Below, one piece after another: positions 7,883 through 28,177 of a stretch of 32,000 bases of DNA (its first letter is position 1; each line of letters opens with the position of its first letter). Both the position numbers and the translations under genes were made by a program. The notes beneath the pieces are model-generated. The model searched no databases and had not been told where the DNA came from. It saw nothing but the letters and a program-made list of their open reading frames with translations. Origin of the DNA: Nitrosopumilus maritimus SCM1 (GTDB taxonomy: Archaea; Thermoproteota; Nitrososphaeria; Nitrososphaerales; Nitrosopumilaceae); the NCBI RefSeq assembly GCF_000018465.1, contig NC_010085.1, positions 390,001 to 422,000 of the forward strand, in the 5' to 3' direction.

Positions 7883-7959
7883 TGGTGCAGTTACCGGGAT
7901 TTGAACCCGGGTCACGTACTTGGCAAGCACGAGTACTAACCAGACTGTACTATAACTGC
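7883..7959 (-). tRNA. tRNA-Gly (anticodon GCC), CCA encoded
   Basis: Hand-folded cloverleaf: GCAGTTA/TAACTGC acceptor, GTAC/GTAC D stem, CGTGC-TTGCCAA-GTACG anticodon arm, CCGGG-TTCAAAT-CCCGG T arm, and terminal ACCA. Confidence 0.9.
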
Positions 7960-10164: not shown

Positions 10165-10557
10165 TTATTTACTAATCTTGGAAATCTGAGATATTTTTAC
10201 AATTTCCATTAGATTGTCCATGTCTATTGGTTTGTAAACAATACCATTTACTTTTAGTTTCTTGAGTTTTTCTTCAGTTAATGATGTGACATCTGCAGTT
10301 ACTGCAATTATTACAGCTTTGGAATCTTTTGCACGAATTTTTTTAATTGCATAGAATCCTGAACCATCTGGCATCATCATATCTACAAATACAATATCTG
10401 GATTGTTTGCAAAATAAAGATCAATTGCTTCTTTCCCATTGCCTCCTTTTCCAATTACCTCGATGCCTCTGTCTTCTAGCATTTCACTAAATACATCTAC
10501 TATGTCAGGCTCATCATCAACAACAATTCCTGTTATTCTCTTTGTGGAATCACTCAT
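10165..10557 (-). CDS. Receiver-only (CheY-like) response regulator, RR-A
   Basis: VVDDEPD, FVDMMMPDGSG (phospho-acceptor Asp), IAVTAD and VYKPI motifs. No output domain. Confidence 0.9.
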   Translation of the reverse strand: MSDSTKRITGIVVDDEPDIVDVFSEMLEDRGIEVIGKGGNGKEAIDLYFANNPDIVFVDMMMPDGSGFYAIKKIRAKDSKAVIIAVTADVTSLTEEKLKKLKVNGIVYKPIDMDNLMEIVKISQISKISK

Positions 10558-10591: not shown

Positions 10592-11197
10592 ATGCCCGGT
10601 GTTGACCGTTTCTTATCTGAATCCTTTGAGATTGCAATCAAGAAGAACCTCAAAGCAGAGGCAGAATATCAGATGAAAAAAACCATGTTTGAAAAATTTG
10701 GTATTTCCATTAGACAATCAATAGAAGACATTGAAAAATTACATCAAGTTCGAAAAGAACTTCTTGGCGAATCTGATTATTCCCAACTAAAAAAATATCT
10801 GAGTAAAATTTGTATTTTTAGAAAATCTGATGATGGAAAATATTACATAATTACAATCTTGGATGACTTTCTTAAAAGAAAATTAATGGATACAATTGGT
10901 GATGATGAATCAAGAAAAGTTCTTACAGCAATGACTGACAAGAATCGTACTACTTCTGATGTTTTAAGATTGAGAAAAATTTCAACAACTTCTGGATATA
11001 GAAAAGTTAATGCACTAATTCGTGATGGATTTTTAATCCAAACAAAACGTAAAATGGTTGAAAACAGACGTCCTGTTGATCAATACACAACATTTTATCA
11101 TAAAATCCTGTTTGAAGTAAAGAAAGATGATCTTTCATTAGAAATATTTGTCACTAAAAAATTATTTGAATCAAGCTCCCTTTTTGATATTCTTTAA
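10592..11197 (+). CDS. Putative DNA-binding protein with C-terminal winged-helix-like region, HTH-A (paralog of 27353..27952)
   Basis: Aligns end to end with HTH-B (MPGVDRFLSESFEIAIKKNL..FEKFGISIRQSIEDIEKL vs MPGLDSLLANSLKESITKDL..FEKYGISFAQSIENFDKL). The HTH-like segment is TTSDVLRLRKISTTSGYRKVNALIRDGFL. Confidence 0.6.
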   Translation: MPGVDRFLSESFEIAIKKNLKAEAEYQMKKTMFEKFGISIRQSIEDIEKLHQVRKELLGESDYSQLKKYLSKICIFRKSDDGKYYIITILDDFLKRKLMDTIGDDESRKVLTAMTDKNRTTSDVLRLRKISTTSGYRKVNALIRDGFLIQTKRKMVENRRPVDQYTTFYHKILFEVKKDDLSLEIFVTKKLFESSSLFDIL

Positions 11198-11254: not shown

Positions 11255-11536
11255 GTGAACTCAAAAGGAATTGTTGTAATTAGTGTAATTGTAATATCTC
11301 TTGTAGGTATTGCATACATGTCATCTACACAACAGTTTGATGAATCAATGACTCCCTCAATTGAAAGTAATTTATCAGTTGATCATGATACCTCATTGAG
11401 TTTAACTTATCCTGACTCCCCAGTAATATCTCATTCAAATTCTGTTGATGAATCTGATGTAGTTGTTACTGTTGATGAAGATGGAAAAAAACAATACTCA
11501 ATTGAAGTTGGAGACACTCCAATAATTCAAGAATAA
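11255..11536 (+). CDS. Small N-anchored protein S1 with C-terminal VDEDGKKQYSIEVGDTP motif
   Basis: A GTG start gives MNSKGIVVISVIVISLVGIAY, homologous to the S2 N-terminus MNSRTGIFVGLAIAVSVGIAF. It shares a C-terminal motif with S2 and with the giant ORF N-terminus. Confidence 0.65.
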   Translation: MNSKGIVVISVIVISLVGIAYMSSTQQFDESMTPSIESNLSVDHDTSLSLTYPDSPVISHSNSVDESDVVVTVDEDGKKQYSIEVGDTPIIQE

Positions 11537-11559: not shown

Positions 11560-12183
11560 TTATGTTGTATCTGATGTGATGTCAAATGTATATGTAATTT
11601 GTACAGTTTCACCACTGTTTAATGTAACATCTGAAGTATCAATCACTGAAAACAAAATTCCTGAAGCAGTTGCACAATTATTATAATCTGCATCACTTGC
11701 TGCACGATTTGTACATATTCCTATTGAACGAATAGTATCTCCATTAGCTACATTTGTTGAACCAGCTTGAAAAGTCAAAGGACCAACCTGTGCAGTTTGT
11801 GATGATATTGTAACTGAAGTATCTTCTTTACAATTATTTTCTGCAATTGAGTTTCCGCTATCAAATGTTGAAGCTGTATCGCTTTCTGCTGGTGTTTGTG
11901 CTTCATCACTAACACAAATTGCACCTATCTGTGTGTTATCTGATGCACTGTTTGAATCTTGAAATGTTTGTTCCAAGAGAAAAGTTTCACCTGTATCAAC
12001 TAGCCTGTTGTGAACTTGTTGTGTGAAAACATTGTTTCCATTCGCATCTATCTTTTCAATTGTTGCAAACCCGTAAAATTTTTGTTCAAAATCATTTTTT
12101 TCAAAATCAAATGGAATTACAGCTGTTGTAAATACTGTAAAAAGTACTGCGGCACTAATCGTATAGGATGTTCTTTTTTGCAT
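11560..12183 (-). CDS. Secreted 4-Cys protein P1 (207 aa), paralog of 21535..22170
   Basis: Start moved to the Met at 12183, giving a signal-like MQKRTSYTISAAVLFTVFTTAV. The tracked 33-aa extension runs through the promoter. Full-length similarity to P2 with four conserved Cys. Confidence 0.75.
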   Translation of the reverse strand: MQKRTSYTISAAVLFTVFTTAVIPFDFEKNDFEQKFYGFATIEKIDANGNNVFTQQVHNRLVDTGETFLLEQTFQDSNSASDNTQIGAICVSDEAQTPAESDTASTFDSGNSIAENNCKEDTSVTISSQTAQVGPLTFQAGSTNVANGDTIRSIGICTNRAASDADYNNCATASGILFSVIDTSDVTLNSGETVQITYTFDITSDTT

Positions 12184-12210: not shown

Positions 12211-12221
12211 TAATATAGTTA
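12211..12221 (-). promoter_or_regulatory. TATA-like element TAACTATATTA of P1, identical 11-mer upstream of P2 (22195..22205)
   Basis: The plus-strand TAATATAGTTA occurs 28 nt from the P1 ATG and 25 nt from the P2 ATG. Confidence 0.5.
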
Positions 12222-12230
12222 TGGGCGAAC

Positions 12231-12244
12231 TTCCAACTTTGGAA
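12231..12244. promoter_or_regulatory. Inverted repeat TTCCA-ACTT-TGGAA (site 1 of recurrent motif)
   Basis: Perfect 5-bp arms, N4 spacer. It lies 48-61 nt upstream of the P1 ATG, just beyond its TATA box. Confidence 0.5.
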
Positions 12245-12260
12245 ATTTTTTTGTAAAAAT

Positions 12261-12276
12261 TTTCCATTTGTGGAAA
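12261..12276. promoter_or_regulatory. Inverted repeat TTTCCA-TTTG-TGGAAA (site 2)
   Basis: Perfect 6-bp arms, N4 spacer. It lies 43-58 nt upstream of the giant-ORF ATG at 12319. Confidence 0.5.
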
Positions 12277-12318
12277 GTACATTCAAGCCTTTTTAGTCGT
12301 CAAAAAATTTTTTTTTCT

Positions 12319-15300
12319 ATGAAATGGGAGATACCTCTACTGGTAAGTTTCGTATTTTTGCTCGGAATTTTTTCGTCATTTCCCGTCGTTGATAGTAATT
12401 TTACAATTGATGAAAATGGTTTGAAACATTATGTTCTAACTCCTGAAAAAAATATTTCATCATTTGATGTTGTTGCAACGTCTCTTTCTAAATACAATCG
12501 TGAAGTTGATTTTGATGAACAAGATCCGTATTTTGTTTTCTTTTTGTTCGTGTTATTGTTAGTTTTACTGTATCGTAGCAATTTCGTTTTGCAAGTAAAA
12601 CAATCTGTACTAAAAACCTTTGCATCTGATTACATCAATTTGTTTTTGAAAAATAATTTTGCACAAACATTATTTTCAGAGAACAAAATTAATCTAAAAG
12701 AAATTTTTGTTATTTTATCTTCATCAAATACAAAATTACAAAACAATTCAACTGTTTTGTATCGAAATTGTTCTAATGTATTAATAAATTCCAAGAAATT
12801 CTTTGTTTCTAAAAAAATTATCGTTGTTTTGTTGTTGTTTGTTGTTTTAATTGTTCCAGTTTATAATCATGCATATGCAGCCTCTGGTGATATTACAAAA
12901 TCTCTTGTTGATTCATTTGAGTTTGATAATCAAGCAGGTTCATACCCTGATATTATTCAAATAGATTCTAATACATTTGCAATATCTTATCAGGGACAAG
13001 GATCTGGTGTTCTTTCTGGATACATTCAAACTTTTGATATTGATAGTCTAGGAAACATTTCATCACTAAACACATTACAATTTGATCCTGATGCAATTGT
13101 ATACACTGAATTAGTTGCAGTAGATTCAGATACGTTTGCAATTGTTTACAGAAGTACTGATGCTGATGGTTTTATTCATACAGTAGACATTACTGGAGCT
13201 GGTGTAATTACAAACGGAACAAATTATGAATTCGATACTACTGCAGGTACTGATCCTCAAATAGTTGCAGTAGATTCAGATACATTTGCAGTTGTGAATC
13301 AAGGTGGTGGTGCTGATGGTTGGTTGCGAACACTAAACATATCTTCAGATGGACTAACCATTTCAGAAGAAGATAGTTTTGAATTTGATACAAATGAAGG
13401 TAGAGACAATGACATTATACAGGTAGATTCAGACACATTTTTGATTGTGTATAGGGGTGTTGAAGCTGACGGATTTGCAAAAACAATCAACATTTCAACT
13501 GATGGTACGATTAATTCTGTAGAAGACACATTAGAGTTTGAGCCTACCTTTGATGCATATCATAATGCTATTGCCCAGGTAGATTCAGACACATTTGTAG
13601 TTGCATATAGAGACATTGACAGTGATGGTCGACTAGCCACGCTTGATGTTACTAGTTCAGGCTCTATTACTCTAGTTGAGACATATGAATACGACACGAA
13701 CACTGCACAACATCCTGACATCAAGAGATTAGATGACAAATCATTTGTGATTGCATATCAGGGAGCAGGAAGTGATGGATTTATCAAAACAATTCCTATC
13801 ACTGCCTCCGGTAATATCGGAACCGTAACTGATACCTATGAATTTGATACTGGAAACGGTCGTTTCCCATCAATAATCAGTATAGATGGAAATACAGTAG
13901 CAATTGCTAGCCGTGGTGGAGGAAATGATGGTTTCTTGGATACCATATTTATCGATGTTGAACTTGCAGGCACAGATACTCCTTCTTTTGTAGAGGTTGA
14001 TGATTCATCAAAAACTGCCATAATTATGGCTAGTTCTACGCCTGTAGTCGTCAGTGAGGGTCTAAATTCTATAAATCCGGAGTTATTCCCTGCATCCACC
14101 GTTAATCCTACACATGGATTTGAAATGGGAATTTATGCCTCATCCACGCCTATTCCTGCCCATGAAGTGACAATTTCTACTATCAAGACCAATGATACCT
14201 TTGAATTTGACACTGCCGATGCAGAGACACCTGATTTGGTTCAGGTGGACACAGACACGTTTGCAGTAGTATACAAGGGAACTGATAATGATGGATTCAT
14301 CAAAACAGTAGATATCACAAGCACAGGCACGATCACTGACACTGGAAACTCCCTAGAATTTGATACTGCAGATGGATGGACACCAAATATTGTGCCTGTA
14401 GACACTGATACATTTGCAGTTGTGTATAATGGAACTGACAGTGATGGATTCGTTAAAACCTTAAATATTAGTGGAGTAGGTGCGATCACTGACACTGGAA
14501 ACTCCCTAGAATTTGATATCGCAGATGGGCTTTATCCTGATATTGTTGCAGTTGATTCAGATACATTTGCGATCGTATATACTGGAACAGATACTGATGG
14601 ATTCATTAAAACCTTAAATATTAGTGGAGTAGGTGCGATCACTGACACTGGAAACTCCTTAGAATTTGATACTGGAACTGGAATATTTCCTGATATCCTT
14701 GCAGTTGATTCAGACACTTTTGTGATTTCTTACACTGGTAACGGAAATGACGGATTTGTAAAAACGGTTGACATTACTGGCGCAGGTGTAATTAGCAGTG
14801 TAATTGACACCTTGGAATTTGATACATCCACTGCCTATGAAACATCTCTCGTAAAGATTGATGATGACACATTTGCAGTAGCATACAGAGGTCCAGGCTC
14901 TGATGGATTTGTCAAAACATTTGATATTGATAGTTCCGGAAACATCAACAATTCAATCACTGATTCACTTGAGTTTGATACTGGAAACGGCAGAGAGCCT
15001 GACATGGTTAGTCTTGGTTCTGGTAATTATGGAATAGCTTATCGTGGTAATAGTAATGATGGATTTTTTGTAATTGTAACAATTGATGATGCAGGAAACA
15101 TTGGAAACTCTGTTGTTGAATCACTTGAATACAACACATCAAATGGATATTTCCCTAGCTTAATTGGAGTTGATCTTAATACATTTGCAATTGCACATAG
15201 AGGAAATGCTGAAGATGGTTTCATTACTACTATTGACACATCAAACGAATTAGCATTTTCTGATTCAGATACTTTGGATGTTGTAGAATCTGTAGATTTA

Positions 15301-18300
15301 ATTAAAAAATATGCAATATTTGGAACTTCTGCTCCTATATTTGAACATTCAGTAATAACAACTGGCAATTCTATAATCGATGATGCAAATTCAACTCCAC
15401 TAGTAGTTTCTTCTGCTATTACACTAAAAGGATATTTCCTAAATGCAAATTCAACTCCAAATGTTTCTGATTCTGGAAATACTGTTGCACAATATACAAG
15501 AACTGCATCTGATATTTTAGATGTTGCAGAACAAAATACTGAATTTAAAAATTATACTATATCAAATTCAACAACACCCGACATTGTAAGTAGTGGAATA
15601 ATTTCATTTTCTCTTTCAGCAAACTCTACTCCACTTCTAACAAGTAACGCAACATCATCAGCTGACATCTCATCCAACTCTACTCCACTTCTCTCTAGCA
15701 ATGCCACAACTGTTGCAATGTTCGTACTTGATCCATCAACTATTCCATCTGTATCTAGTACTGCAACTGTTGCATTCACTTTGTCAGCAAACTCTACTCC
15801 ACTTCTAACAAGTAACGCAACATCATCAGCTGACATCTCATCCAACTCTACTCCTGTACTATCCAGCAACGCAACATCAACTGTCATGAGAATACTCAAC
15901 GCAACATCCATCCCATCACTATTCAGTAACGCAACATCATCAGCTGACATCTCATCCAACTCTACTCCTGTACTATCCAGCAACGCAACATCAACTGTCA
16001 TGAGAATACTCAACGCAACATCCATCCCATCACTATTCAGTAACGCAACATCATCAGCTGACATCTCATCCAACTCTACTCCTGTACTATCCAGCAACGC
16101 AACATCAACTGTCATGAGAATACTCAACGCAACATCCATCCCATCACTATTCAGTAACGCAACATCATCAGCTGACATCTCATCCAACTCTACTCCTGTA
16201 CTATCCAGCAACGCAACATCAACTGTCATGAGAATACTCAACGCAACATCCATCCCATCACTATTCAGTAACGCAACATCATCAGCTGACATCTCATCCA
16301 ACTCTACTCCTGTACTATCCAGCAACGCAACATCAACTGTCATGAGAATACTCAACGCAACATCCATCCCATCACTATTCAGTAACGCAACATCATCAGC
16401 TGACATCTCATCCAACTCTACTCCTGTACTATCCAGCAACGCAACATCAACTGTCATGAGAATACTCAACGCAACATCCATCCCATCACTATTCAGTAAC
16501 GCAACATCATCAGCTGACATCTCATCCAACTCTACTCCTGTACTATCCAGCAACGCAACATCAACTGTCATGAGAATACTCAACGCAACATCCATCCCAT
16601 CACTATTCAGTAACGCAACATCATCAGCTGACATCTCTGGTTCATCAACACCATTCCTCTCAAGTAACGCAACATCAACTGTCATGAGAATACTCAACGC
16701 AACATCCATCCCATCACTATTCAGTAACGCAACATCATCAGCTGACATCTCATCCAACTCTACTCCTGTACTATCCAGCAACGCAACATCAACTGTCATG
16801 AGAATACTCAACGCAACATCCATCCCATCACTATTCAGTAACGCAACATCATCAGCTGACATCTCTGGTTCATCAACACCATTCCTCTCAAGTAACGCAA
16901 CAGTATCACTATCTGGTTCATCAACACCATTCCTCTCAAGTAACGCAACATCAACTGGAATGTTTGACATCTCATCCAACTCTACTCCATTCCTCTCAAG
17001 TAACGCAACAGTATCACTATCTGGTTCATCAACACCATTCCTCTCAAGTAACGCAACATCAACTGTCATGAGAATACTCAACGCAACATCTGAACCAGTG
17101 ATATCAAGTAACGCTACCACTGTTGCAATGTTCAATCTTAACGCAACATCAATTCCATCACTATTTGGTAACGCAACAGTATCGCTATCTGGATCCTCTA
17201 CTCCTGTACTATCAAGTAACGCAACTTATGGAACACTTGTAGCATCAGCTAACACCACTCCATTCCTCTCAAGTAACGCAACAGTATCACTATCTGGTTC
17301 ATCAACACCATTCCTCTCAAGTAACGCAACATCAACTGTGATGCACATATTATCTGCAAACTCCAGTCCGGTTGTTTCCAGTAATGCAATTACAACTGGA
17401 ATGTTTAACATCTCAGCAAACTCTACTCCTGTACTATCAAGTAACGCAACATCAACTGTCATGAGAATACTTAACGCAACATCTGAACCAGTTCTATCTG
17501 ATGATGCACAGATAACTGGAATGTTTAACATCTCAGCAAACTCTACTCCTGTACTATCAAGTAACGCAACATCAACTGTCATGAGAATACTTAACGCAAC
17601 ATCTGAACCAGTTCTATCTGATGATGCACAGATAACTGGAATGTTTAACATCTCAGCAAACTCTACTCCTGTACTATCAAGCAACGCAACATCAACTGTC
17701 ATGAGAATACTTAACGCAACATCTGAACCAGTTCTATCTGATGATGCACAGATAACTGGAATGTTTAACATCTCAGCAAACTCTACTCCTGTACTATCAA
17801 GCAACGCAACATCAACTGTCATGAGAATACTTAACGCAACATCTGAACCAGTTCTATCTGATGATGCACAGATAACTGGAATGTTTAACATCTCAGCAAA
17901 CTCCACTCCTGTACTATCTGACAATGCTCAAGTCACTGGAATGTTCACCATCAACGCAAACTCCACTCCTGTACTATCTGACAATGCTCAAGTCACTGGA
18001 ATGTTCACCATCAACGCAAACTCCACTCCTGTACTATCTGACAATGCTCAAGTCACTGGAATGTTCACCATCAACGCAAACTCCACTCCTGTACTATCTG
18101 ACAATGCTCAAGTCACTGGAATGTTCACCATCAACGCAAACTCCACTCCTGTACTATCTGACAATGCAACAAGTGATACAGTATTTGCCTTACTAACATC
18201 TGATGCCCCAAGTCTTACAGAATCAATTGATCAAATTGAGAGATATGCAATTAATGCAATAGATGTACCTGTTATTTCAGAATCTGTTGGAAAACCAAAA

Positions 18301-20613
18301 CACTCTAAACTATTGGCTACCTCAACACCTAGAATTACAGAATTTGGATTAATCGCAGGACATTATACACTTGAAACAACTTCGATCCCAGAAATATCTC
18401 ATTCTGGAAATATCCCTCCTAGAATAACATCTGCCAATGTTACATCTACTACTCAAATTGATATTGCTTTTGAACGAAACATAGATCGTAAATCTGTAAA
18501 ACCTGCTAATTTTGTTTTGACCGATCCATCCGCTACAATAAAGGGTGTAAAAACCACAAACAATGTAATAACTTTAAGACTAGATTCGGCAATCACATCT
18601 GGCCAAACCCCAACAATTGCAATTGCTGGTAATGCTGTCAAAGATACGGATGGAAACACTGTAGATAGTGTAACTGTTACTTCGGTTGACAAAGTTCCAC
18701 CAAAAGTAAAGAAAGCTTATGCTACAACAAAGTCTAGTATAGTGATTATATTTGACAAGAATGTTACTTCACAACTATCTGATTATTCCTCTCTACAAAT
18801 TCCAACAGGAACTTCCAAGACAATCTCTGGTCATACTGCTTCAGATAATGTGGTGACCTTAACAGTAAATTCTGCAGATATAACTGCACGTGCTCATGGC
18901 ACTATTACGATTTCATCTGGTCTGACTGACACAAATGGTAATTCATTTAACACTAACCACAATCCTGTATCTGTAATATCCAATATTGAGGAAGCTCCTG
19001 TAGAATTAGATGAAGATTTTACAGATTTGGTAATTACAACTGAAGAAATTGAAATTAAAGAAATTCTGGTCAAAACAAATGTCAAGGCAAAACTTGATCT
19101 TAGTAAATCTCCAACAAAAACTACCGTAACAGAAAACAGTGTAACTAAGAATAGAGTTCAAATTACAAATGAAATGAAAATCACTTCCTCAGATGGAACT
19201 GATGAAGAAGTTCAGATAGTTATTCCAAAAGATGTTTTGGTATCTGGTCCTCAAGATAAATTTACTGGCTCCATAGATTTACCTGAACCAAAGACAAACA
19301 ATTCATGTCCAATAAACCCTGATGGTAGTCAAATAGTAAGTTGTATTGCTATAGGATTGTCTGATGACGAATTAACTTTCAACAAGGCTGTAAAGATTAC
19401 AATTCCTGGCGAAGGTTCTTTGACACCTTATTACAGTACTGATAATACTACTTGGAATGCGATATCTACACTTTGTGATGCTGCTAACACTGCAGAAGTC
19501 AATGGAGTCTCAATATCTAGTGATGGTACAAGAGAATGTTACTTTGTAGATGGATCTGATATGATAATCTGGACTACTCACTTTACAGTATTTGGTACAT
19601 TATCCTCTACCTCGACTAGTTCTAGTTCAGGAGGGGGTTCCAGTGGTGATAATTCTGCTCCTTCTATAACTACTAGTATTGGACCTTCTATTACTGATAG
19701 TGGTCTTGGAGGAATTATAGGAAATACTGATCAACCATTAGTTCCTGGAGCAGAAATCAAAAACTATCCACTTGTATTTGATGGAATTGGCTATGATGAG
19801 AATAGCTTTAATTCTGTTCATACTGCAGTCATTGAAACAGAGCAACCCTTGAATGTAATTTTGAGTCTTTATGAAAATTCAGGTGCTCAAAATATTGAAC
19901 ATGTAGAAATGTATGTCAATCATTTCGGTCCTAGAGTCCTTAATGACAGAACTGAGACTGCTATTATCTATGACAAATTTACTGGCATTGAAATTCTTGA
20001 CCCATATGGTCTAATTTCTGATGCGACTGTATTGCCTACACTTTTAGATACTCAATCTCAATTTTATTTCCAAGTGTTCTTTGAAGAAGAAATTGAACAA
20101 TCTGATGTCTTGTTTAGAGTATGGGACAAAAATAGAAATTCAGTTGAATTACATTTGTCTGATGCATTAATGGTGGTAAAAGGAGAATCATCCTCTGAAG
20201 AACGCAATGTCACTGAGTCCGGAATTGTCTCTCCAACAGACCCATCAGAATCTGAAATTGTCTCTCCAGCAGACCCATCAGAATCTGAAATTGTCTCTCC
20301 AGCAGACCCATCAGAATCTGAAATCATATCTACAGAACTTCCACCTGAATCAGAAAAAATTAAAATCCCATCTGAACCTGAACTTGGAACGTATGTAGGA
20401 ATTCCTATGGACCCAGAACCTGGTATTGATGTAAACTTGCAGATGGACCCAGAACCTGGTATTGATGTAAACTTGCAGATGGACCCAGAACCTGGTATTG
20501 ATGTAAACTTGCAGATGGACCCAGAACCTGGTATTGATGTAAACAAACCAAAATCTTTGTTGGATTCAATATCTGAATTCTTTGAGGTTCTCACAAAACT
20601 GTTGAAATTCTAA
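12319..20613 (+). CDS. Giant (~2,764 aa) N-terminally membrane-anchored surface protein: 3 hydrophobic segments, two 7-repeat propeller-like blocks, ~1,000-aa N-X-S/T-rich repeat stalk, two Ig-like domains, Cys-containing globular domains, acidic C-terminal micro-repeats
   Basis: A single uninterrupted frame of 8.3 kb in stop-rich AT-rich DNA. The first ATG is at 12319 (the track used TTG at 12268, which lies inside a promoter palindrome). Domain calls come from internal repeats read in the translation. Confidence 0.85.
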   Translation: MKWEIPLLVSFVFLLGIFSSFPVVDSNFTIDENGLKHYVLTPEKNISSFDVVATSLSKYNREVDFDEQDPYFVFFLFVLLLVLLYRSNFVLQVKQSVLKTFASDYINLFLKNNFAQTLFSENKINLKEIFVILSSSNTKLQNNSTVLYRNCSNVLINSKKFFVSKKIIVVLLLFVVLIVPVYNHAYAASGDITKSLVDSFEFDNQAGSYPDIIQIDSNTFAISYQGQGSGVLSGYIQTFDIDSLGNISSLNTLQFDPDAIVYTELVAVDSDTFAIVYRSTDADGFIHTVDITGAGVITNGTNYEFDTTAGTDPQIVAVDSDTFAVVNQGGGADGWLRTLNISSDGLTISEEDSFEFDTNEGRDNDIIQVDSDTFLIVYRGVEADGFAKTINISTDGTINSVEDTLEFEPTFDAYHNAIAQVDSDTFVVAYRDIDSDGRLATLDVTSSGSITLVETYEYDTNTAQHPDIKRLDDKSFVIAYQGAGSDGFIKTIPITASGNIGTVTDTYEFDTGNGRFPSIISIDGNTVAIASRGGGNDGFLDTIFIDVELAGTDTPSFVEVDDSSKTAIIMASSTPVVVSEGLNSINPELFPASTVNPTHGFEMGIYASSTPIPAHEVTISTIKTNDTFEFDTADAETPDLVQVDTDTFAVVYKGTDNDGFIKTVDITSTGTITDTGNSLEFDTADGWTPNIVPVDTDTFAVVYNGTDSDGFVKTLNISGVGAITDTGNSLEFDIADGLYPDIVAVDSDTFAIVYTGTDTDGFIKTLNISGVGAITDTGNSLEFDTGTGIFPDILAVDSDTFVISYTGNGNDGFVKTVDITGAGVISSVIDTLEFDTSTAYETSLVKIDDDTFAVAYRGPGSDGFVKTFDIDSSGNINNSITDSLEFDTGNGREPDMVSLGSGNYGIAYRGNSNDGFFVIVTIDDAGNIGNSVVESLEYNTSNGYFPSLIGVDLNTFAIAHRGNAEDGFITTIDTSNELAFSDSDTLDVVESVDLIKKYAIFGTSAPIFEHSVITTGNSIIDDANSTPLVVSSAITLKGYFLNANSTPNVSDSGNTVAQYTRTASDILDVAEQNTEFKNYTISNSTTPDIVSSGIISFSLSANSTPLLTSNATSSADISSNSTPLLSSNATTVAMFVLDPSTIPSVSSTATVAFTLSANSTPLLTSNATSSADISSNSTPVLSSNATSTVMRILNATSIPSLFSNATSSADISSNSTPVLSSNATSTVMRILNATSIPSLFSNATSSADISSNSTPVLSSNATSTVMRILNATSIPSLFSNATSSADISSNSTPVLSSNATSTVMRILNATSIPSLFSNATSSADISSNSTPVLSSNATSTVMRILNATSIPSLFSNATSSADISSNSTPVLSSNATSTVMRILNATSIPSLFSNATSSADISSNSTPVLSSNATSTVMRILNATSIPSLFSNATSSADISGSSTPFLSSNATSTVMRILNATSIPSLFSNATSSADISSNSTPVLSSNATSTVMRILNATSIPSLFSNATSSADISGSSTPFLSSNATVSLSGSSTPFLSSNATSTGMFDISSNSTPFLSSNATVSLSGSSTPFLSSNATSTVMRILNATSEPVISSNATTVAMFNLNATSIPSLFGNATVSLSGSSTPVLSSNATYGTLVASANTTPFLSSNATVSLSGSSTPFLSSNATSTVMHILSANSSPVVSSNAITTGMFNISANSTPVLSSNATSTVMRILNATSEPVLSDDAQITGMFNISANSTPVLSSNATSTVMRILNATSEPVLSDDAQITGMFNISANSTPVLSSNATSTVMRILNATSEPVLSDDAQITGMFNISANSTPVLSSNATSTVMRILNATSEPVLSDDAQITGMFNISANSTPVLSDNAQVTGMFTINANSTPVLSDNAQVTGMFTINANSTPVLSDNAQVTGMFTINANSTPVLSDNAQVTGMFTINANSTPVLSDNATSDTVFALLTSDAPSLTESIDQIERYAINAIDVPVISESVGKPKHSKLLATSTPRITEFGLIAGHYTLETTSIPEISHSGNIPPRITSANVTSTTQIDIAFERNIDRKSVKPANFVLTDPSATIKGVKTTNNVITLRLDSAITSGQTPTIAIAGNAVKDTDGNTVDSVTVTSVDKVPPKVKKAYATTKSSIVIIFDKNVTSQLSDYSSLQIPTGTSKTISGHTASDNVVTLTVNSADITARAHGTITISSGLTDTNGNSFNTNHNPVSVISNIEEAPVELDEDFTDLVITTEEIEIKEILVKTNVKAKLDLSKSPTKTTVTENSVTKNRVQITNEMKITSSDGTDEEVQIVIPKDVLVSGPQDKFTGSIDLPEPKTNNSCPINPDGSQIVSCIAIGLSDDELTFNKAVKITIPGEGSLTPYYSTDNTTWNAISTLCDAANTAEVNGVSISSDGTRECYFVDGSDMIIWTTHFTVFGTLSSTSTSSSSGGGSSGDNSAPSITTSIGPSITDSGLGGIIGNTDQPLVPGAEIKNYPLVFDGIGYDENSFNSVHTAVIETEQPLNVILSLYENSGAQNIEHVEMYVNHFGPRVLNDRTETAIIYDKFTGIEILDPYGLISDATVLPTLLDTQSQFYFQVFFEEEIEQSDVLFRVWDKNRNSVELHLSDALMVVKGESSSEERNVTESGIVSPTDPSESEIVSPADPSESEIVSPADPSESEIISTELPPESEKIKIPSEPELGTYVGIPMDPEPGIDVNLQMDPEPGIDVNLQMDPEPGIDVNLQMDPEPGIDVNKPKSLLDSISEFFEVLTKLLKF
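12913..13970 (+). repeat. Seven tandem ~51-aa repeats (propeller-like block 1)
   Basis: Consensus .[FY]EFDT..G..P.I..VDSDTFA[IV]VY.G...DGF.KT..I...G.I, counted 7 times before a linker. Confidence 0.7.
14198..15245 (+). repeat. Seven tandem ~51-52-aa repeats (propeller-like block 2)
   Basis: Same consensus, 7 copies. Copies 2-4 share long identical DNA stretches (for example ...ttaaaaccttaaatattagtggagtaggtgcgatcactgacactggaaactcc at about 14453 and 14609, 156 nt apart). Confidence 0.7.
15811..16836 (+). repeat. In-frame tandem array, 114-nt (38-aa) period, 9 units, first 7 apparently identical
   Basis: The unit SNATSSADISSNSTPVLSSNATSTVMRILNATSIPSLF starts at 15811, 15925, 16039 and so on (period verified at several points). 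Unit 8 carries the GSSTPFL variant. Confidence 0.9.
17401..17880 (+). repeat. In-frame tandem array, 120-nt (40-aa) period, 4 units
   Basis: The unit MFNISANSTPVLSSNATSTVMRILNATSEPVLSDDAQITG repeats at 17401, 17521, 17641 and 17761. The only difference I noticed is a synonymous agt/agc change. Confidence 0.9.
17901..18167 (+). repeat. In-frame tandem array, 60-nt (20-aa) period, ~4.4 units
   Basis: The unit NSTPVLSDNAQVTGMFTINA. The lines at 17941, 18001 and 18061 are identical 60-mers. Confidence 0.9.
18415..18980 (+). other. Two consecutive Ig-like (bacterial Big_5/SbsA-like) domains within the giant ORF
   Basis: Pattern ...ITSANVTSTTQIDIAFERNIDRKSVKPANFVLTD...ITLRLDSAI...IAIAGNAVKDTDGNTV, then a second copy, KKAYATTKSSIVIIFDKNV...VTLTVNSADI...ITISSGLTDTNGNSF. 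Recognised by eye only. Confidence 0.5.
20227..20325 (+). repeat. 33-nt x3 in-frame micro-repeat (VSP[TA]DPSESEI)
   Basis: Read directly; units start at 20227, 20260 and 20293. Confidence 0.85.
20407..20546 (+). repeat. 36-nt x~3.9 in-frame micro-repeat (MDPEPGIDVNLQ)
   Basis: Read directly; units start at 20407, 20443, 20479 and 20515. Confidence 0.85.
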
Positions 20614-20756: not shown

Positions 20757-21020
20757 ATGATGAATAGTAGGACTGGAATCTTTGTTGGACTTGCAATCGC
20801 AGTATCTGTTGGAATTGCATTTGCAGCTTCATATTCTTCTGTGAATACATCTGACTCTGAAAAATTTGAATCAGTTGTAGATATGACCGTTGAACCTAGC
20901 AGTCCTCATATTGATGATGGTGCACTTGTTGGTATTGAAAATGAAAATTATGCTGTAAATGAAGATGGTAAACGTCATTATACTTTAGTGGCAGAAACAT
21001 CTCCTGTAGTTTCTCCTTAA
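20757..21020 (+). CDS. Small N-anchored protein S2 with C-terminal VNEDGKRHYTLVAETSP motif
   Basis: Paralog of S1 (shared N-terminus and C-terminal motif). A TTTAAATA box lies about 20-27 nt upstream of the ATG. Confidence 0.65.
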   Translation: MMNSRTGIFVGLAIAVSVGIAFAASYSSVNTSDSEKFESVVDMTVEPSSPHIDDGALVGIENENYAVNEDGKRHYTLVAETSPVVSP

Positions 21021-21034
21021 ATATAGTCTAAAAG

Positions 21035-21481
21035 TTATGACTTAGAATCTGTTATTTCTTCCCATGGTGAAACAAAATATTCGTATTTGTTTGGGTGTTT
21101 TGGTGATTCTTCTACCACAAACCAAACATTGAGTCTAGATTTGTCTCCCTCTAATAGATCACATGGTATTGATAATGTTTCATCATTTCTATCATACTTT
21201 AGTTCTTCAATGATATTTTCAGATTTTACAAAATATTGATGGTCGACTATCTTATCAAAATTTTTAGCAGAAACTATACAATTGTCGTTCTCTGTATCTA
21301 AAATTTCAATTGGGATGGATGAACGAACAATATTTCTTTCAATCACTTCCTCCCAAACAACTGGTGTGTATTGGTTAAAGAACAAAAACACAAGACTATT
21401 TTCATTTGTAGCAAAAATCAAAATTAATCCCGCTGCTATTGCCAATCCTATTAAGACGATTTTGTCATTTTTTGAGCTCAA
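21035..21481 (-). CDS. N-terminally anchored hypothetical protein (148 aa)
   Basis: MSSKNDKIVLIGLAIAAGLILIF is a TM segment followed by a ~115-aa soluble domain with 2 Cys. No motif recognised. Confidence 0.55.
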   Translation of the reverse strand: MSSKNDKIVLIGLAIAAGLILIFATNENSLVFLFFNQYTPVVWEEVIERNIVRSSIPIEILDTENDNCIVSAKNFDKIVDHQYFVKSENIIEELKYDRNDETLSIPCDLLEGDKSRLNVWFVVEESPKHPNKYEYFVSPWEEITDSKS

Positions 21482-21534
21482 CGTACTGTCCTCTTACTTG
21501 GTACTAATAAAAATATAAAAAAAATGTATTTTGA

Positions 21535-22170
21535 CTAAGTTCCATCTGACTGTAGATTAAATGTGTATGTGATATCTACTGTCTCACCACTTGCTAAAGT
21601 AACATCTGATGTGTCAACTACAGCAAACAATGTTGTTGTACAATCACGAACATCATTATCTGAAGAGTCTGCATCACAAATTCCTATTGCTTCAACAGTG
21701 CTGCCTGCAAATAGGTTGTTACCAGTACCAGTACCTGCTGTAAATGTTAATGGTCCTATTGTTGCAATTTGAGAAGTACTGTCAACAGAACCATCTGTTT
21801 TACAGTTTTCTTCATCATCAGCACCACCTTCTGCTGCATCATGGTCTGTGTTGAATGTAGTGTTTGAGGTTGATTCAGCATATGATTCTGCAGCTGTTGC
21901 AGTTGTAAGGCAGATTGCACCAATTTGTGTAGCGTCAGTACCAATATCTGTTACTCCGGTAAATGCATTAGCAATTAGAAGATCTTCACCTTCATCAAAC
22001 AATTGATTGTGTACTGTTTGTGAAAGCATTTCATTTCCATTTGCATCGTGATATGTCATTGTGGCTTGTCCGTATAGGTTAAAGCCATCGTTAGTCATTG
22101 ATTGTGTTCCTGCGGGAATTACTAGAATTGCAATTAATCCTAGTAGTCCCATAGAAGCTATCTTGTACAT
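21535..22170 (-). CDS. Secreted 4-Cys protein P2 (211 aa), paralog of P1
   Basis: Signal peptide MYKIASMGLLGLIAILVIPAG. Blocks conserved with P1: DANGN, VHN.L.D.GE, TQIGAIC, NCK.D.SV, GPLTF.AG, IGIC, DTSDVTL.SGETV.ITYTF. Confidence 0.75.
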   Translation of the reverse strand: MYKIASMGLLGLIAILVIPAGTQSMTNDGFNLYGQATMTYHDANGNEMLSQTVHNQLFDEGEDLLIANAFTGVTDIGTDATQIGAICLTTATAAESYAESTSNTTFNTDHDAAEGGADDEENCKTDGSVDSTSQIATIGPLTFTAGTGTGNNLFAGSTVEAIGICDADSSDNDVRDCTTTLFAVVDTSDVTLASGETVDITYTFNLQSDGT

Positions 22171-22212
22171 TAAACAAAAAACTTGTACTGTTGTTAATAT
22201 AGTTAATTTCTA

Positions 22213-22230
22213 TTTCCCATTGATGGAAAA
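22213..22230. promoter_or_regulatory. Inverted repeat TTTCCCA-TTGA-TGGAAAA (site 3, one arm mismatch)
   Basis: It lies 43-60 nt upstream of the P2 ATG, the same position relative to the shared TATA 11-mer as site 1 at P1. Confidence 0.45.
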
Positions 22231-22262: not shown

Positions 22263-22284
22263 TATTTCCCAACATTGGGAAATA
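22263..22284. promoter_or_regulatory. Inverted repeat TATTTCCCA-ACAT-TGGGAAATA (site 4, perfect 9-bp arms)
   Basis: Read directly. It sits in the P2/kinase divergent region, 85-106 nt upstream of the kinase ATG. Confidence 0.5.
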
Positions 22285-22368
22285 CTTCTGAGTTTAATTT
22301 TGAAAAATATGTTTCATTTTTTTTGAAAAATAATTCAAGATAAATAACATTGATGTAGATTTTTTTTA

Positions 22369-24171
22369 ATGAAAATAAAGTCAAAACTATTTTTTGGTTT
22401 TGCAGTAGTTGTATCAATCACATTATTTTTAGGAATATTGACAAACTCTCAATCAAATATTGCGTCAGATGATTTCAAATCCATTGCCGAACGCGATCTT
22501 TTAGTTATACAAAATGCTGAAAAACTACAAAGACTTGCTGTAGATTCTGAGAATGGTCAAAGAGGATTTATCATTACTGGCAATGAATCATTTCTGGAAC
22601 CATACAATAGAGGTGTAGATGAATTCTTTGTTTTACTTGAAGAAGAAAAAAACCTGGTGTCTTACAATCCATCACAAGTAGAAAAATTAGAACATATTTC
22701 TCAACTATTTTCTGATTGGATAGAATCTGCTGGTTCTCCTGAAATTGAACTTGCAAGACAAATCCATTCTTCCCAAGATGATGCTCTGGAATCCATATTG
22801 TCTAATGAATCTGATATAATTTTAGATGAAATATATCAAATAATTTTGTTATTGGAAGGAAATTTACGAGATTCTGAAAATGTGGATGGATTTTTGCTAC
22901 TTGGAAAAATCAAGGCAGATATCTATGATACTGAGGTATCTCAACGAGAATATTTGATCTCAGGAAACGAAGATTTTCTTGTCTCATTTAATAGTGTCAA
23001 AATAGAATTACGTGAAAATATTCAGAATTTAGAAAATATTCTAAAAGATGATGAAGAGAACCTCCAGTTGATTTACTCCATTGGTAAACTATATCAAAAA
23101 TGGGATCAAGAAGTCGTTTATCCCAACATTGAGTCTAGAAGAAATATTGTCGAAAATTACAATTTGAATGAAGCCTCAATCCTACTTGAAAAAGAAACTG
23201 GAAAGAGAATTCTTGATGAGATAAGAACGGAATTTTCTGAATTTATTCAAATTGAAAATGAAAACACACAACAACGATTGGAAAACTCTTTGAATAATCA
23301 AGAACTTGTTCGAAATGTAATCATTATTGTGCTTGTTGCTAGTGTCGTATCTGCAGTGGTTTTGGCATTTCTTATCCTAAATTCTGTTTTAAACCCTTTA
23401 TCAAAATTAGAAAAAGTCATTCAACAGTTCAAAGAAGGAGATTATGCCCAAAAAATAGATATCAATTCTAATGATGAATTGGGAGATTTTTCAAAATCAT
23501 TTGATGCGATTAGAGAAATTTTAATCAAAAAAGAAAAACTCAAAAACATTGGTGAGCTGGCAACTCGACTCGCTCATGATTTGCGAAATCCCCTAGCTGT
23601 TATTCAGGGTGCAGTAAATTTGATGAAAACTGATTTGCAAGAAAAAGATGAAAGTCTTGATAAACGCTTTAGAATGATTGATGCGGCAATTTTGAGAATG
23701 ACTCATCAAATCAATGACGTAATGGATTTTGTACGAGTTTCAAATCTTCAAATCGAAACTCATTCCTTATTGGAACTCTTACAGTCCTCCATATCTAGAA
23801 CAACTAAAAATGATTCAATTACAATTGAATTGCCTGAAAACGACATAAAACTACGATGTGATGCCCATAAACTGGATATTTTGTTTGTAAATTTACTATC
23901 TAACGCAATTGATGCTGTTAAAGAAAATGGAACAATCAAAATCCGCTTTTTTGATGAAACGTCTCATGTGAAGATAGAGCTTGAAGACTCTGGATCTCCA
24001 ATCCCTCCTAACATTCTTGAAGAAATGTTTGAACCATTGTTTACTACAAAACAAGTTGGTACTGGTTTAGGGCTTGCAAGCTGTAAAAATATTGTAGAAC
24101 AACATCGTGGTGAAATTTCAGCAAAAACCAATCCTACTGTCATATCTCTAACTTTATCAAAGACTCTGTAA
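22369..24171 (+). CDS. Sensor histidine kinase: TM - extracellular CHASE3-like domain - TM - HAMP - HisKA - HATPase_c
   Basis: CHASE3-type signature ENGQRGFIITGNESFLEPY (with a second half, SQREYLISGNEDFLVSF). Second TM IIIVLVASVVSAVVLAFLIL. H-box LATRLAHDLRNPL, N-box LLSNAIDAV, G-boxes EDSGSPIP and GTGLGLASC. Confidence 0.9.
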   Translation: MKIKSKLFFGFAVVVSITLFLGILTNSQSNIASDDFKSIAERDLLVIQNAEKLQRLAVDSENGQRGFIITGNESFLEPYNRGVDEFFVLLEEEKNLVSYNPSQVEKLEHISQLFSDWIESAGSPEIELARQIHSSQDDALESILSNESDIILDEIYQIILLLEGNLRDSENVDGFLLLGKIKADIYDTEVSQREYLISGNEDFLVSFNSVKIELRENIQNLENILKDDEENLQLIYSIGKLYQKWDQEVVYPNIESRRNIVENYNLNEASILLEKETGKRILDEIRTEFSEFIQIENENTQQRLENSLNNQELVRNVIIIVLVASVVSAVVLAFLILNSVLNPLSKLEKVIQQFKEGDYAQKIDINSNDELGDFSKSFDAIREILIKKEKLKNIGELATRLAHDLRNPLAVIQGAVNLMKTDLQEKDESLDKRFRMIDAAILRMTHQINDVMDFVRVSNLQIETHSLLELLQSSISRTTKNDSITIELPENDIKLRCDAHKLDILFVNLLSNAIDAVKENGTIKIRFFDETSHVKIELEDSGSPIPPNILEEMFEPLFTTKQVGTGLGLASCKNIVEQHRGEISAKTNPTVISLTLSKTL

Positions 24172-24188: not shown

Positions 24189-24422
24189 TTAGGCATTTTC
24201 AGACAATTTTCTGATATGGCTTTTTATTGATTGCTCACTTGCCAGATTTAATGCTCTTTGCAACTCTTTTTGATATGCTTCAACATTTTTCTGATTTCCT
24301 TTAATTATCTCACATTCTTCAACTAGTGGCAGTGACTGAAAATTCTTGTATTGTTCATATGTGACGGTACAAGTATAATGATTGTCTTCCTCTTTGAATC
24401 TATATTTTATTTTAAATGCCAT
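24189..24422 (-). CDS. Small hypothetical protein (77 aa), tandem paralog of 24519..24758
   Basis: Shared pattern [IR]KY[RK]FK....Y.C.VTY.QY.NF..L....ECEI. Confidence 0.55.
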   Translation of the reverse strand: MAFKIKYRFKEEDNHYTCTVTYEQYKNFQSLPLVEECEIIKGNQKNVEAYQKELQRALNLASEQSIKSHIRKLSENA

Positions 24423-24518: not shown

Positions 24519-24758
24519 CTAGACGTATTTTTCAGGACATGACAGTTTCTTGATGGGTGTTAACTCGTTTTTACATGCCATGTATAATGCCTCTTCTATT
24601 TCATTTTGCATACTTTGCTGTAATACTTCATCCTTGTTTGTTATTTCACATTCATCAATTGCAGATAAATTTCTAAAATTGATGTATTGTGGGTATGTTA
24701 CTGCACAAGAGTAGGACTGAGGATCGCCTTTGAACTTATATCTTATCCTCAATGGCAT
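24519..24758 (-). CDS. Small hypothetical protein (79 aa), tandem paralog of 24189..24422
   Basis: See the paralog. Both have TATA-like AT-rich upstream regions. Confidence 0.55.
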   Translation of the reverse strand: MPLRIRYKFKGDPQSYSCAVTYPQYINFRNLSAIDECEITNKDEVLQQSMQNEIEEALYMACKNELTPIKKLSCPEKYV

Positions 24759-26150: not shown

Positions 26151-26241
26151 GTGAATTTACTACTATTTCAATTTTTGGCAAATTATTAGGATATAGATAT
26201 ATGCTTATTCCCATTATTGGAACTCATGGGTCAAATCAATA

Positions 26242-27266: not shown

Positions 27267-27282
27267 TTCCCAAATTCGGGAA
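27267..27282. promoter_or_regulatory. Inverted repeat TTCCCA-AATT-CGGGAA (site 5, one inner mismatch)
   Basis: It lies 71-86 nt upstream of the HTH-B ATG. Confidence 0.4.
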
Positions 27283-27952: not shown

Positions 27953-28159
27953 ATACAAATTCATTGTTACAGATTTTGGAATAGAGAAATAACTGATTTT
28001 AATTCATTATCTGATTCCATCTAATCTAACACAAAACTATCCTAATTAGATACCTGAAATTCCTAAATTCAATCAAATATTGTTGAATTCTTAAGATTAT
28101 ACCGTATGAAACCAATAATCTATTACTACGCAGTAAAAAATGACTAACGGTTAAATATC

Positions 28160-28177
28160 ATTTCCAGATATGGAAAT
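28160..28177. promoter_or_regulatory. Inverted repeat ATTTCCA-GATA-TGGAAAT (site 6, perfect 7-bp arms)
   Basis: It lies 7-24 nt upstream of the RR-B ATG, downstream of a TTAAATAT box. That is an operator-like position over the expected transcription start. Confidence 0.5.

Follow-up and report, generated by a model that had tools for sequence, protein, structure and literature searches.

The window analyzed here comprises 32,000 nucleotides of the archaeon Nitrosopumilus maritimus SCM1 (contig NC_010085.1, positions 390,001 to 422,000) and carries repeated copies of an inverted repeat, TTYCCA-N4-TGGRAA, in promoters of adhesin and signaling genes. Its P1 protein is 100% identical to Nmar_0455 and the adjacent giant gene is Nmar_0456; archaeal marker genes (tRNA-intron endonuclease and L10e) and a G+C content of approximately 34% are consistent with the assignment to N. 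maritimus. Two paralogous gene sets surround the palindromes between P1 and giant (Table 1). The first consists of a response regulator gene (RR-A, minus strand) divergent from a helix-turn-helix gene (HTH-A), followed by a gene for a small secreted protein and by P1a (minus strand), which is divergent from giant. The second begins with another small secreted protein gene, followed by Nmar_0458 and P1b (minus strand), which are divergent from a CHASE3 histidine kinase gene, and continues through two stand-alone genes for NitrOD1 ('Nitrosopumilus output domain 1'), a membrane protein gene, a HEAT-repeat gene (minus strand) divergent from an EamA transporter gene, HTH-B, and RR-B. P1a and P1b are paralogs with 45% identity. 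Searches of Pfam and NCBIfam gave no significant family for HTH-A, HTH-B, P1a, P1b, or Nmar_0458.

Table 1. Genes, palindromic sites, and TATA-like boxes of the window. Site scores are matches to the 12 specified positions of TTYCCA-N4-TGGRAA. The last column gives the log2 fold change (log2FC) of biofilm versus planktonic cells from the supplement of PMC12448741. wHTH, winged helix-turn-helix; TPM, transcripts per million.
Feature	Position	Strand	Description	Biofilm log2FC
tRNA gene	7886-7959	-	Rfam RF00005	
RR-A (Nmar_0452)	10165-10557	-	REC-only response regulator, divergent from HTH-A; Pfam Response_reg E=2.5e-23	-0.79 (adjusted P 0.006, outside the study's cut-offs)
HTH-A (Nmar_0453)	10592-11197	+	arCOG03067 wHTH protein; candidate binder	-0.48 (not significant; TPM 11-23)
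Small secreted protein gene	11255-11536			
P1a (Nmar_0455)	11560-12183	-	Secreted or membrane-anchored protein, no assigned fold	+3.05
P1a TATA-like box	12211-12218	-	TAATATAG (CTATATTA in gene orientation); centered about 31 nt before ATG	
Site A	12230-12245		CTTCCA-ACTT-TGGAAA; 11/12; 11 bp upstream of P1a TATA-like box; center 54.5 nt from P1a ATG	
Site B	12261-12276		TTTCCA-TTTG-TGGAAA; 12/12; 13 bp upstream of giant TATA-like box; center 50.5 nt from giant ATG	
Giant TATA-like box	12290-12297	+	TTTTTAGT; centered about 25 nt before ATG	
Giant (Nmar_0456)	12319-20613	+	Adhesin-like protein, 2764 aa	+6.04 (top row in the table of significant changes, apparently sorted by log2FC)
Small secreted protein gene	20757-21020			
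Nmar_0458	21035-21481	-	148 aa; widely conserved gene pair with P1b	+1.89
P1b (Nmar_0459)	21535-22170	-	Paralog of P1a	+4.11 (26,171 TPM in biofilm)
P1b TATA-like box	22195-22202			
Site C	22214-22229		TTCCCATTGATGGAAA (TTCCCA-TTGA-TGGAAA); 12/12; 11 bp upstream of P1b TATA-like box; conserved in L005, L007, L036	
Site D	22266-22281		TTCCCAACATTGGGAA (TTCCCA-ACAT-TGGGAA); 12/12; distal site of the P1b/CHASE3-kinase divergent region	
Kinase TATA-like box	22340-22347		Conserved	
Sensor kinase (Nmar_0460)	22369-24171	+	CHASE3-HAMP-HisKA-HATPase	+1.67
NitrOD1 gene	24189-24422	-	Stand-alone	
NitrOD1 gene	24519-24758	-	Stand-alone	-3.70
HEAT-repeat gene (Nmar_0462)	25626-26150	-		-2.96
Weak site E'	26166-26181		TTTCAA-TTTT-TGGCAA; 10/12; on the HEAT side of the shared TATA-like stretch, before the ATG at 26150	
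Shared TATA-like stretch	26191-26202			
Site E	26208-26223		TTCCCATTATTGGAAC (TTCCCA-TTAT-TGGAAC); 11/12; 5 bp downstream of the TATA-like stretch; 18 nt before EamA ATG	
EamA/DMT transporter gene (Nmar_0463)	26242-27243	+		-2.74
Site F	27267-27282		TTCCCAAATTCGGGAA (TTCCCA-AATT-CGGGAA); 11/12; ends 70 nt upstream of HTH-B ATG	
HTH-B (Nmar_0464)	27353-27952	+	arCOG03067; prime candidate binder	-1.37
RR-B TATA-like box	28151-28158		TTAAATAT	
Site G	28161-28176		TTTCCAGATATGGAAA (TTTCCA-GATA-TGGAAA); 12/12; 2 bp downstream of RR-B TATA-like box; 7 nt before RR-B ATG	
RR-B (Nmar_0465)	28184-28570	+	REC-only response regulator	-2.43
tRNA gene	28607-28681	-	Rfam RF00005; adjoins RR-B; annotated tRNA-Glu	+2.04

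Within the 135-bp gap between the start codons of P1a (12183, minus strand) and giant (12319), TTCCAACTTTGGAA occupies 12231-12244 and TTTCCATTTGTGGAAA occupies 12261-12276. The exact pattern TTCCA-N4-TGGAA occurs three times in 32 kb (12231, 12262, and 28162) versus 0.03 copies expected, and none of 100 dinucleotide shuffles reached three. Other copies carry an extra C in one or both half-sites, giving the 16-bp consensus TTYCCA-N4-TGGRAA. With a threshold of at least 11 of the 12 positions, seven sites were identified (12230, 12261, 22214, 22266, 26208, 27267, and 28161), all of them in the 3.2 kb of intergenic DNA (10% of the window), while the 28.8 kb of coding sequence had none. Under a first-order Markov null for intergenic DNA, 2000 simulations averaged 0.07 sites and never exceeded 3. 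The bare core CCA-N4-TGG was not enriched in the window (7 matches versus 5.4 expected), indicating that the signal requires the full half-site. So as not to test only the pattern first proposed, all 5-Nk-5 palindromes (k = 0-10) were enumerated in the intergenic DNA. Only TTCCA-N4-TGGAA combined G/C-containing half-sites with three copies, and none of 300 simulated intergenic sets gave three copies for half-sites with G/C. The recurrence of the palindrome is far from chance, as the original prediction had claimed, and a chance or low-complexity artifact is ruled out by the shuffles and the unbiased enumeration. The further copies which that prediction had placed at 22213, 22263, 27267, and 28160 exist, with small offsets and, at some of them, an extra C per half-site; its list of six was incomplete, missing 26208-26223 and the weak site at 26166-26181.

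The motif scans covered the window and loci around homologs, in total approximately 495 kb of related Nitrosopumilaceae DNA, in which the motif was almost confined to the promoters of the same genes. Loci with P1 homologs (10 genomic and 79 metagenomic, numbered with the prefix L) were fetched, and DNA upstream of 66 P1 starts was extracted. In the window and these 89 loci (369 kb), 42 matches scored at least 11/12, of which about 37 were intergenic, corresponding to 0.45 per kb in intergenic and 0.017 per kb in coding DNA (approximately 26-fold); the similar density throughout coding DNA that would have spoken against a regulatory element was not observed. All 15 perfect matches were intergenic after discounting a spurious upstream extension of a P1 open reading frame (ORF), within which two of them had been scored as coding. 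Every P1a or P1b ortholog of the genus-level clade (L001, L002, L003, L005, L007, L011, L012, L013, and L036; protein identity down to 53%) had one site that starts 58-61 nt ahead of the ATG and another 31-68 bp further upstream. The half-sites in these orthologs were fixed, whereas the 4-bp spacers varied (AAGT, TAAT, AGAA, AATA, TCAA, and TCAG) and the flanking and intervening sequences diverged, so that the expected conservation of half-sites in orthologous promoters was borne out.

The cassette of REC and HTH genes, small secreted protein, P1, and giant was conserved in four loci (L001, L002, L011, and L097), together with site A, and orthologs of site B retained the half-sites with other spacers (CAAA, ATAT, or TTTT). 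In L097, whose HTH-A is 62% identical to that of SCM1, the cassette order was the same and both P1/giant sites were present, 32 bp apart and with TTTT spacers. Across all loci, 27 different spacers, all A/T-rich, occurred among 48 distinct sites, while the spacing of the CCA-N4-TGG core was constant in all 48 as well as in the seven sites of the window. The Y/R position, the sole variable position of the half-site, changed independently on each side (T.A 18, C.A 7, C.G 6, and T.G 3 of 37), as predicted for protein recognition of each half-site and unlike a base-paired stem. Conserved half-sites around a freely varying spacer therefore look like the footprint of a dimeric DNA-binding protein rather than a hairpin. 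More distant P1 homologs (below approximately 50% identity) mostly had no exact motif upstream, and several had TTCCA-N3/4-GG variants (L018-L033). Separately, a variant with a 5-bp spacer, TTTCCA-ATATT-TGGAAA, was seen approximately 80 nt upstream of distant P1 homologs with 35-39% identity (L060:3712, L067:279, and L069:2107).

The sites fall into two layouts relative to the TATA-like boxes. For P1a, giant, and P1b, 11-13 bp separate the box from a site upstream of it, and the placement of two palindromes just distal to the P1 and giant TATA-like boxes was confirmed in its coordinates; in the REC, EamA, and HEAT genes, the site lies 2-9 bp downstream of the box. Other species repeated both layouts, namely site-TATA for P1 and TATA-site-ATG for REC, EamA, and HEAT. 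Sites A and B, whose centers are 31 bp apart, lie 48-61 nt from the P1a start codon and 43-58 nt from the giant start codon, respectively. The box TAATATAG also occurs at P1b, and the CCA core begins exactly 14 nt beyond it in both P1 promoters. At the giant TATA-like box, a block, AAGCCTTTTTAGTCGTC, was conserved in the four cassette loci, and the distance from this box to the ATG fits a leaderless or short-leader mRNA. More generally, TATA-like boxes in the window (TTTAAATA and relatives) were typically centered 25-31 nt before the ATG, which suggests that most of the mRNAs would be leaderless or have short leaders.

The remaining sites are more varied in position. Site D lies 58 bp upstream of the TATA-like box of the kinase gene, and its half-sites were kept with different spacers in L005 (ATAA, read on the same strand) and L007 (ATAC). 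Site E was identical in L005 and had equivalents before EamA in L090-L093, and a second, weaker site matching E' was also present in L005, L092, and L093. The TATA-site-ATG layout of site G was repeated in L005, L092, and L093. Site F lies 38 bp upstream of a conserved ATTAATAA box of HTH-B. Helical phasing of paired sites was considered and rejected, as the center-to-center distances (31-32, approximately 43-44, 52-54, and 68 bp) were not consistently in phase.

Expression data were available from a 2025 study of biofilms of ammonia-oxidizing archaea, in which Nmar_0455-0459 were described as a highly induced adhesion region (PMC12448741); that study contained no promoter or motif analysis, and a literature search found no other paper naming Nmar_0456-0465 in its main text. 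Every site-bearing promoter in the window responded in biofilm. Genes with the site on the upstream side of the TATA-like box (P1a, giant, and P1b) were induced (+3.0 to +6.0), and those with the site on its downstream side (RR-B, EamA, and HEAT) were repressed (-2.4 to -3.0), in a single contrast and with boxes assigned from sequence. The kinase gene, with its site 58 bp upstream of the box, also rose. HTH-B was an exception to this relation between sign and position, with a site 38 bp upstream of the proximal box and a falling transcript, which may reflect read-through from EamA. The co-induction of P1 and giant agrees with the earlier claim that functionally linked genes share the motif. 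These results show that a conserved palindrome at fixed positions defines a small regulon of adhesin and signaling genes, the two halves of which respond oppositely in biofilm.

The original prediction had read the sites as occupying an activator-type position, and this applies to P1 and giant, with the site upstream of the TATA-like box, but not to 26208 and 28161, where the position is of the repressor type. Because these two sites lie between TATA-like box and ATG and their genes go down in biofilm, an operator of a dual regulator fits better than a site for an activator only. The palindrome is probably the operator of a dimeric regulator with position-dependent dual action. As an explanation of the observations as a whole, we consider it reasonably likely that TTYCCA-N4-TGGRAA represents a family of operators, each probably bound by a dimeric transcription factor. 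As a cis-element, the palindrome would belong to a familiar class, the inverted-repeat operator.

The motif was also associated with the HTH-B gene set outside the P1 loci. HTH-B had more than 500 homologs, and six loci from other Nitrosopumilus (L090-L095, 87.6 kb) were analyzed, from N. piranensis, N. ureiphilus, strains K4 and S6, and two metagenome contigs. In these loci, the HEAT, HTH, EamA, and REC genes stayed together despite shuffled gene order, often with NitrOD1 and a 258-aa membrane protein. A site was present upstream of the HTH gene in 6/6 of these loci and in SCM1, and was degraded in L005; REC was immediately preceded by a site as well (in K4 and S6, 0-4 nt from the ATG), and EamA also had one before it. 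All 12 matches at 11/12 or better in the 87.6 kb lay within the signaling gene set, and the flanking ribosomal, replication, and metabolic genes had none. The REC gene was adjacent to or at most two genes from the HTH gene in SCM1 (both paralogs), L001, L002, L005, L011, and L090-L098. These results are in line with the earlier proposal that HTH-A or HTH-B, with a response regulator, would be candidate binders, as copies of the motif accompany the HTH-B gene set in six additional loci. In L094, a site was additionally noted within the divergent promoter of REC and NitrOD1 (position 3706).

Nmar_0453 and Nmar_0464 are annotated in published sources as arCOG03067 proteins with an ArsR-type HTH (PMC12448741 supplement; PMC5847659). 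Our Pfam and NCBIfam searches of HTH-A and HTH-B gave only sub-threshold wHTH matches, and when the PDB was searched by sequence with the HTH profile, no match had an E value below 0.04. In the AlphaFold (AF2) model of HTH-B (predicted local distance difference test score, pLDDT, 82.8), five N-terminal helices precede a wHTH at approximately residues 104-165 and a C-terminal beta-sheet; the best fold matches of the wHTH were NolR, CzrA, and SmtB of the ArsR/SmtB family and the Pyrococcus furiosus heat-shock regulator Phr. NolR, the SmtB/CzrA repressors, and Phr are dimeric and bind inverted repeats. The putative recognition helix, TSGYRK-N-LI, was invariant in the family, including HTH-A, which fits the invariant half-site; outside this helix, HTH-A and HTH-B are 29% identical. 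With slightly better than even confidence, we propose that the binder is an arCOG03067 ArsR-like wHTH protein, with HTH-B/Nmar_0464 as the protein concerned, perhaps alongside the paralogous HTH-A/Nmar_0453.

RR-A and RR-B (128-130 aa) consist of REC alone, and neither HTH-A nor HTH-B contains a REC domain. The residues needed for phosphorylation are kept in both REC proteins and in RR-B comprise the acidic pocket, the phospho-acceptor Asp, Thr, and Lys. In about three out of four thaumarchaeal response regulators, the receiver domain stands alone, with no known output, and Galperin et al. (2018) reported that thaumarchaeal REC-only genes adjoin arCOG03067 genes, naming Nmar_0452-0453 and leaving the interaction to be shown (PMC5847659). 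TTYCCA-N4-TGGRAA is a candidate DNA target for thaumarchaeal REC-arCOG03067 pairs, for which none had been proposed.

In the mechanism that we propose, one regulator, active during surface growth, would bind all of the sites; at the upstream position it would help to recruit TBP/TFB, and at the downstream position it would block RNA polymerase. The CHASE3 kinase may phosphorylate the adjacent REC-only response regulators, which in turn would set the activity of the regulator, with negative feedback onto HTH-B and RR-B; this control by phosphorylation is put forward tentatively, as a possibility that falls short of even odds. More specifically, a 'split response regulator' can be envisaged, in which docking of the phosphorylated REC-only protein on the N-terminal helical domain of the arCOG03067 wHTH protein would switch the binding of the latter to TTYCCA-N4-TGGRAA, turning the giant-adhesin and P1 genes on and the signaling genes of the system itself off when the cells settle on a surface. 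We regard this specific form as doubtful, though worth stating.

Several observations weigh against this interpretation. The TATA-like boxes and the position classes were assigned from the sequence, using the TATA-to-ATG distance typical of the window, and a literature search found no transcription start site map for N. maritimus. The distance between site D and the TATA-like box of the kinase gene is not fixed, since L007 has a 22-bp deletion between them. The 34-bp promoter between HTH-A and RR-A has no site, and L096, a locus with an HTH-A ortholog, had none within 16 kb. The expression evidence consists of one contrast in one study on nine genes of a single 18-kb region, and regional or indirect effects could lie behind the pattern; the NitrOD1 gene at 24519-24758 (a 13-fold decrease) and Nmar_0461 (log2FC -1.54) also fell in biofilm without a site, and no TTYCCA-N4-TGGRAA match at 10/12 or better was found near this NitrOD1 gene. 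Finally, HTH-B transcript levels decrease in biofilm, just when the protein would be expected to act, so that HTH-B activity would need post-translational control.

An alternative with two regulons sharing one motif is unlikely. HTH-A would activate the adhesin promoters, whereas HTH-B would act as a repressor or autoregulator of its HEAT/EamA/REC set, each with its own REC partner, so that the opposite changes in biofilm would reflect two signals and not where the site lies. This agrees with the synteny of HTH-A/RR-A with P1a, giant, and two sites in SCM1 and the four cassette loci, with the presence of the HTH-B set and its sites in species whose fetched loci contain no P1 or giant genes, and with the low identity of the paralogs outside the recognition helix. 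However, the identical recognition helix and the lack of any systematic sequence difference between the two groups of sites would lead one to expect cross-binding, P1b and the kinase gene bear the same sites yet lie approximately 10 kb from HTH-A, and HTH-A is weakly expressed and unchanged in biofilm.

It is quite improbable that the operator is real but its binder is encoded elsewhere (e.g., the TrmB-family protein Nmar_0034), with the neighboring arCOG03067 genes as targets only. In its favor, Nmar_0034 rises in biofilm (log2FC +2.21; PMC12448741), and the sites upstream of HTH-B double as operators of the HEAT gene in several species and thus need not signify autoregulation. Nevertheless, the motif co-occurs with the HTH-B gene in each of the seven further genomes or contigs analyzed despite the shuffled order, and no other DNA-binding gene is conserved in the HTH-B neighborhood.

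Nucleic-acid hairpins, such as a 5' element of the transcript, a terminator, or a DNA cruciform, are a very improbable explanation of the inverted repeats. Most copies can form hairpins of 5-9 bp with a 4-nt loop (-4.1 to -10.3 kcal/mol, z -2.2 to -3.9), but conserved site E folds at just -2.5 kcal/mol (z = -0.6), the half-site sequence itself is conserved without compensatory change, and the variable position breaks pairing in about one third of the distinct sites. Moreover, the divergent promoters carry sites A-D upstream of their TATA-like boxes, with no T-run after the sites, and no Rfam match was found there; with stabilities weak or absent and no covariation, the RNA element was rejected. 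A relic of segmental duplication of the P1 promoter, to which the common TAATATAG box at equal distance from the site in P1a and P1b might point, is hardly conceivable, and was rejected, as the motif is also found at the non-paralogous REC, EamA, HEAT, and HTH promoters and is intact where flanks and spacer diverge, and chance in AT-rich DNA, equally remote, is excluded by the shuffles and simulations.

The proposed dual regulator can be compared with known archaeal systems. TrmBL1/Tgr (the Thermococcales glycolytic motif TATCAC-N5-GTGATA) and SurR each act through one palindrome at many promoters, activating from upstream of the TFB-recognition element (BRE) and TATA box and repressing from downstream of the TATA box. 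By analogy, the sign of the biofilm response appears to follow the same position rule for the seven genes whose site adjoins the TATA-like box. The motif differs, however, and the candidate here is an ArsR-like wHTH protein with an N-terminal helical domain; a search of HTH-A and HTH-B with the TrmB family of Pfam gave no match even at E<=1, and the fold matches the generic ArsR/SmtB wHTH. Furthermore, unlike those of TrmBL1/Tgr, the targets are surface adhesin and signaling genes rather than sugar metabolism, and the proposed input is a two-component system rather than a sugar ligand. Small wHTH proteins of the Lrs14/AbfR1 type control biofilm and surface structures in Sulfolobus. HTH-A had weak, sub-threshold NCBIfam matches to the Sta1 and Lrs14 models (E = 9e-4 and 7e-3), but the scores were far under the family cut-offs (19 versus 80 bits), and HTH-A is approximately 200 aa long with its wHTH in the C-terminal half. 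The FilI/FilR1/FilR2 and LtrK/LtrR systems resemble the present loci in that sensor kinase, REC, and wHTH are encoded together, whereas REC and HTH are fused in FilR1 and LtrR and are separate proteins here.

The euryarchaeal archaellum activator EarA is a wHTH protein that binds approximately 9-11 bp upstream of the BRE and recognizes repeated 6-mers, TACATA or A(C/G)(C/G)TACA(T/C) (PMC10665913, PMC5512572). The likeness would lie in the activation of surface-structure genes from just upstream of the BRE and perhaps also in ancestry. EarA differs in its TACATA 6-mers, as opposed to the TTYCCA-N4-TGGRAA palindrome, and has no described repressor-type sites or REC partner; no TACATA repeats were noticed on reading the conserved P1/giant promoters, where no dedicated search was made. 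arCOG03067 genes have been reported to adjoin flaB genes in euryarchaea (PMC4858521). In L098 (JGI contig Ga0556610_012175, 1352-7660), we observed an HTH-A homolog with 34% identity divergent from a REC-only gene and located directly after an archaellum operon (archaellin, FlaF-like, and ATPases), an arrangement that fits the association of arCOG03067 with flaB and a possible kinship with EarA.

The nitrogen operator of NrpR in Methanococcus maripaludis, GGAA-N6-TTCC (PMC2723118), is an archaeal repressor operator near a promoter that shares the four letters of the half-site and a gap of 6 bp between the GGAA and TTCC blocks. Its half-sites are in the opposite order, so that it is a different palindrome, and no NrpR-like protein is encoded nearby. 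GGAA-N6-TTCC had no match in the window, compared with eight for TTCC-N6..8-GGAA, and an NrpR-type operator was rejected on the order of the half-sites and this count.

TTYCCA-N4-TGGRAA gives a specific candidate DNA target for thaumarchaeal two-component signaling and for the adhesin response in biofilm, and it bears on how bare-receiver response regulators reach gene expression; our literature search found no described regulator-operator pair for this phylum. The motif also offers a regulatory explanation for the strongest reported biofilm response of N. maritimus, with Nmar_0456 as the top induced gene. The system is concrete: 18 kb of a cultured model organism contain seven predicted operators along with two candidate REC partners and two candidate binders of approximately 200 aa, and the targets are already divided into induced and repressed groups by a published RNA-seq contrast. 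If the split response regulator were true, it would be the first described thaumarchaeal route from a two-component system to transcription and a switch from planktonic to biofilm life in a globally abundant nitrifier; if the regulon were genome-wide, it would define the surface-attachment program of marine ammonia oxidizers.

Additionally, several features were noted in the related loci. In L003 (1851-2249) and L012 (2307-2708), the start codon of a 127-aa membrane-anchored protein, for which Pfam gave no hit, is preceded at only 2 nt by a site (TATCCAAAATTGGGAA and TTTCCAATATTGGATA, respectively) that closely follows a TATA-like box; the protein is probably a further repressed member of the regulon in other Nitrosopumilus lineages. 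Three tandem REC-only genes lie immediately upstream of P1 homologs with 47-49% identity in L004, L017, L020, and L024, linking the P1 family to two-component genes even without the exact motif. In L011 (556-2631, minus strand; metagenome contig Ga0209047_1004469), one 691-aa ORF joins the giant N-terminus in frame to the transmembrane segment, HAMP, HisKA, and HATPase of the kinase. Its giant part, a signal or transmembrane region and about four DSDTFA...DGF repeats, takes the place of the CHASE3 domain. The ORF represents a natural deletion fusion that connects adhesin with sensor, or else a chimera of the assembly.

In the window (21035-22170) and approximately 60 fetched loci, nearly every P1 homolog has an Nmar_0458 homolog next after it, and P1a is without this partner. 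The AlphaFold model of P1 (pLDDT 77) is beta-rich with four invariant Cys, and no fold in the PDB matched it credibly. A D-E-(D/N)-G-x-K-(H/Q)-Y...P motif is common to both small secreted proteins and residues 30-45 (approximately) of giant, and in distant lineages a gene of the small secreted protein family lies directly upstream of P1 on the same strand. Within giant, the region 15000-19000 of the window contains long, near-identical tandem repeats rich in Ser, Thr, and Asn (NATS.P..SSNATS...), which produce a strong negative GC skew (to -0.55) and long minus-strand shadow ORFs (e.g., 15552-17135) that are not genes.

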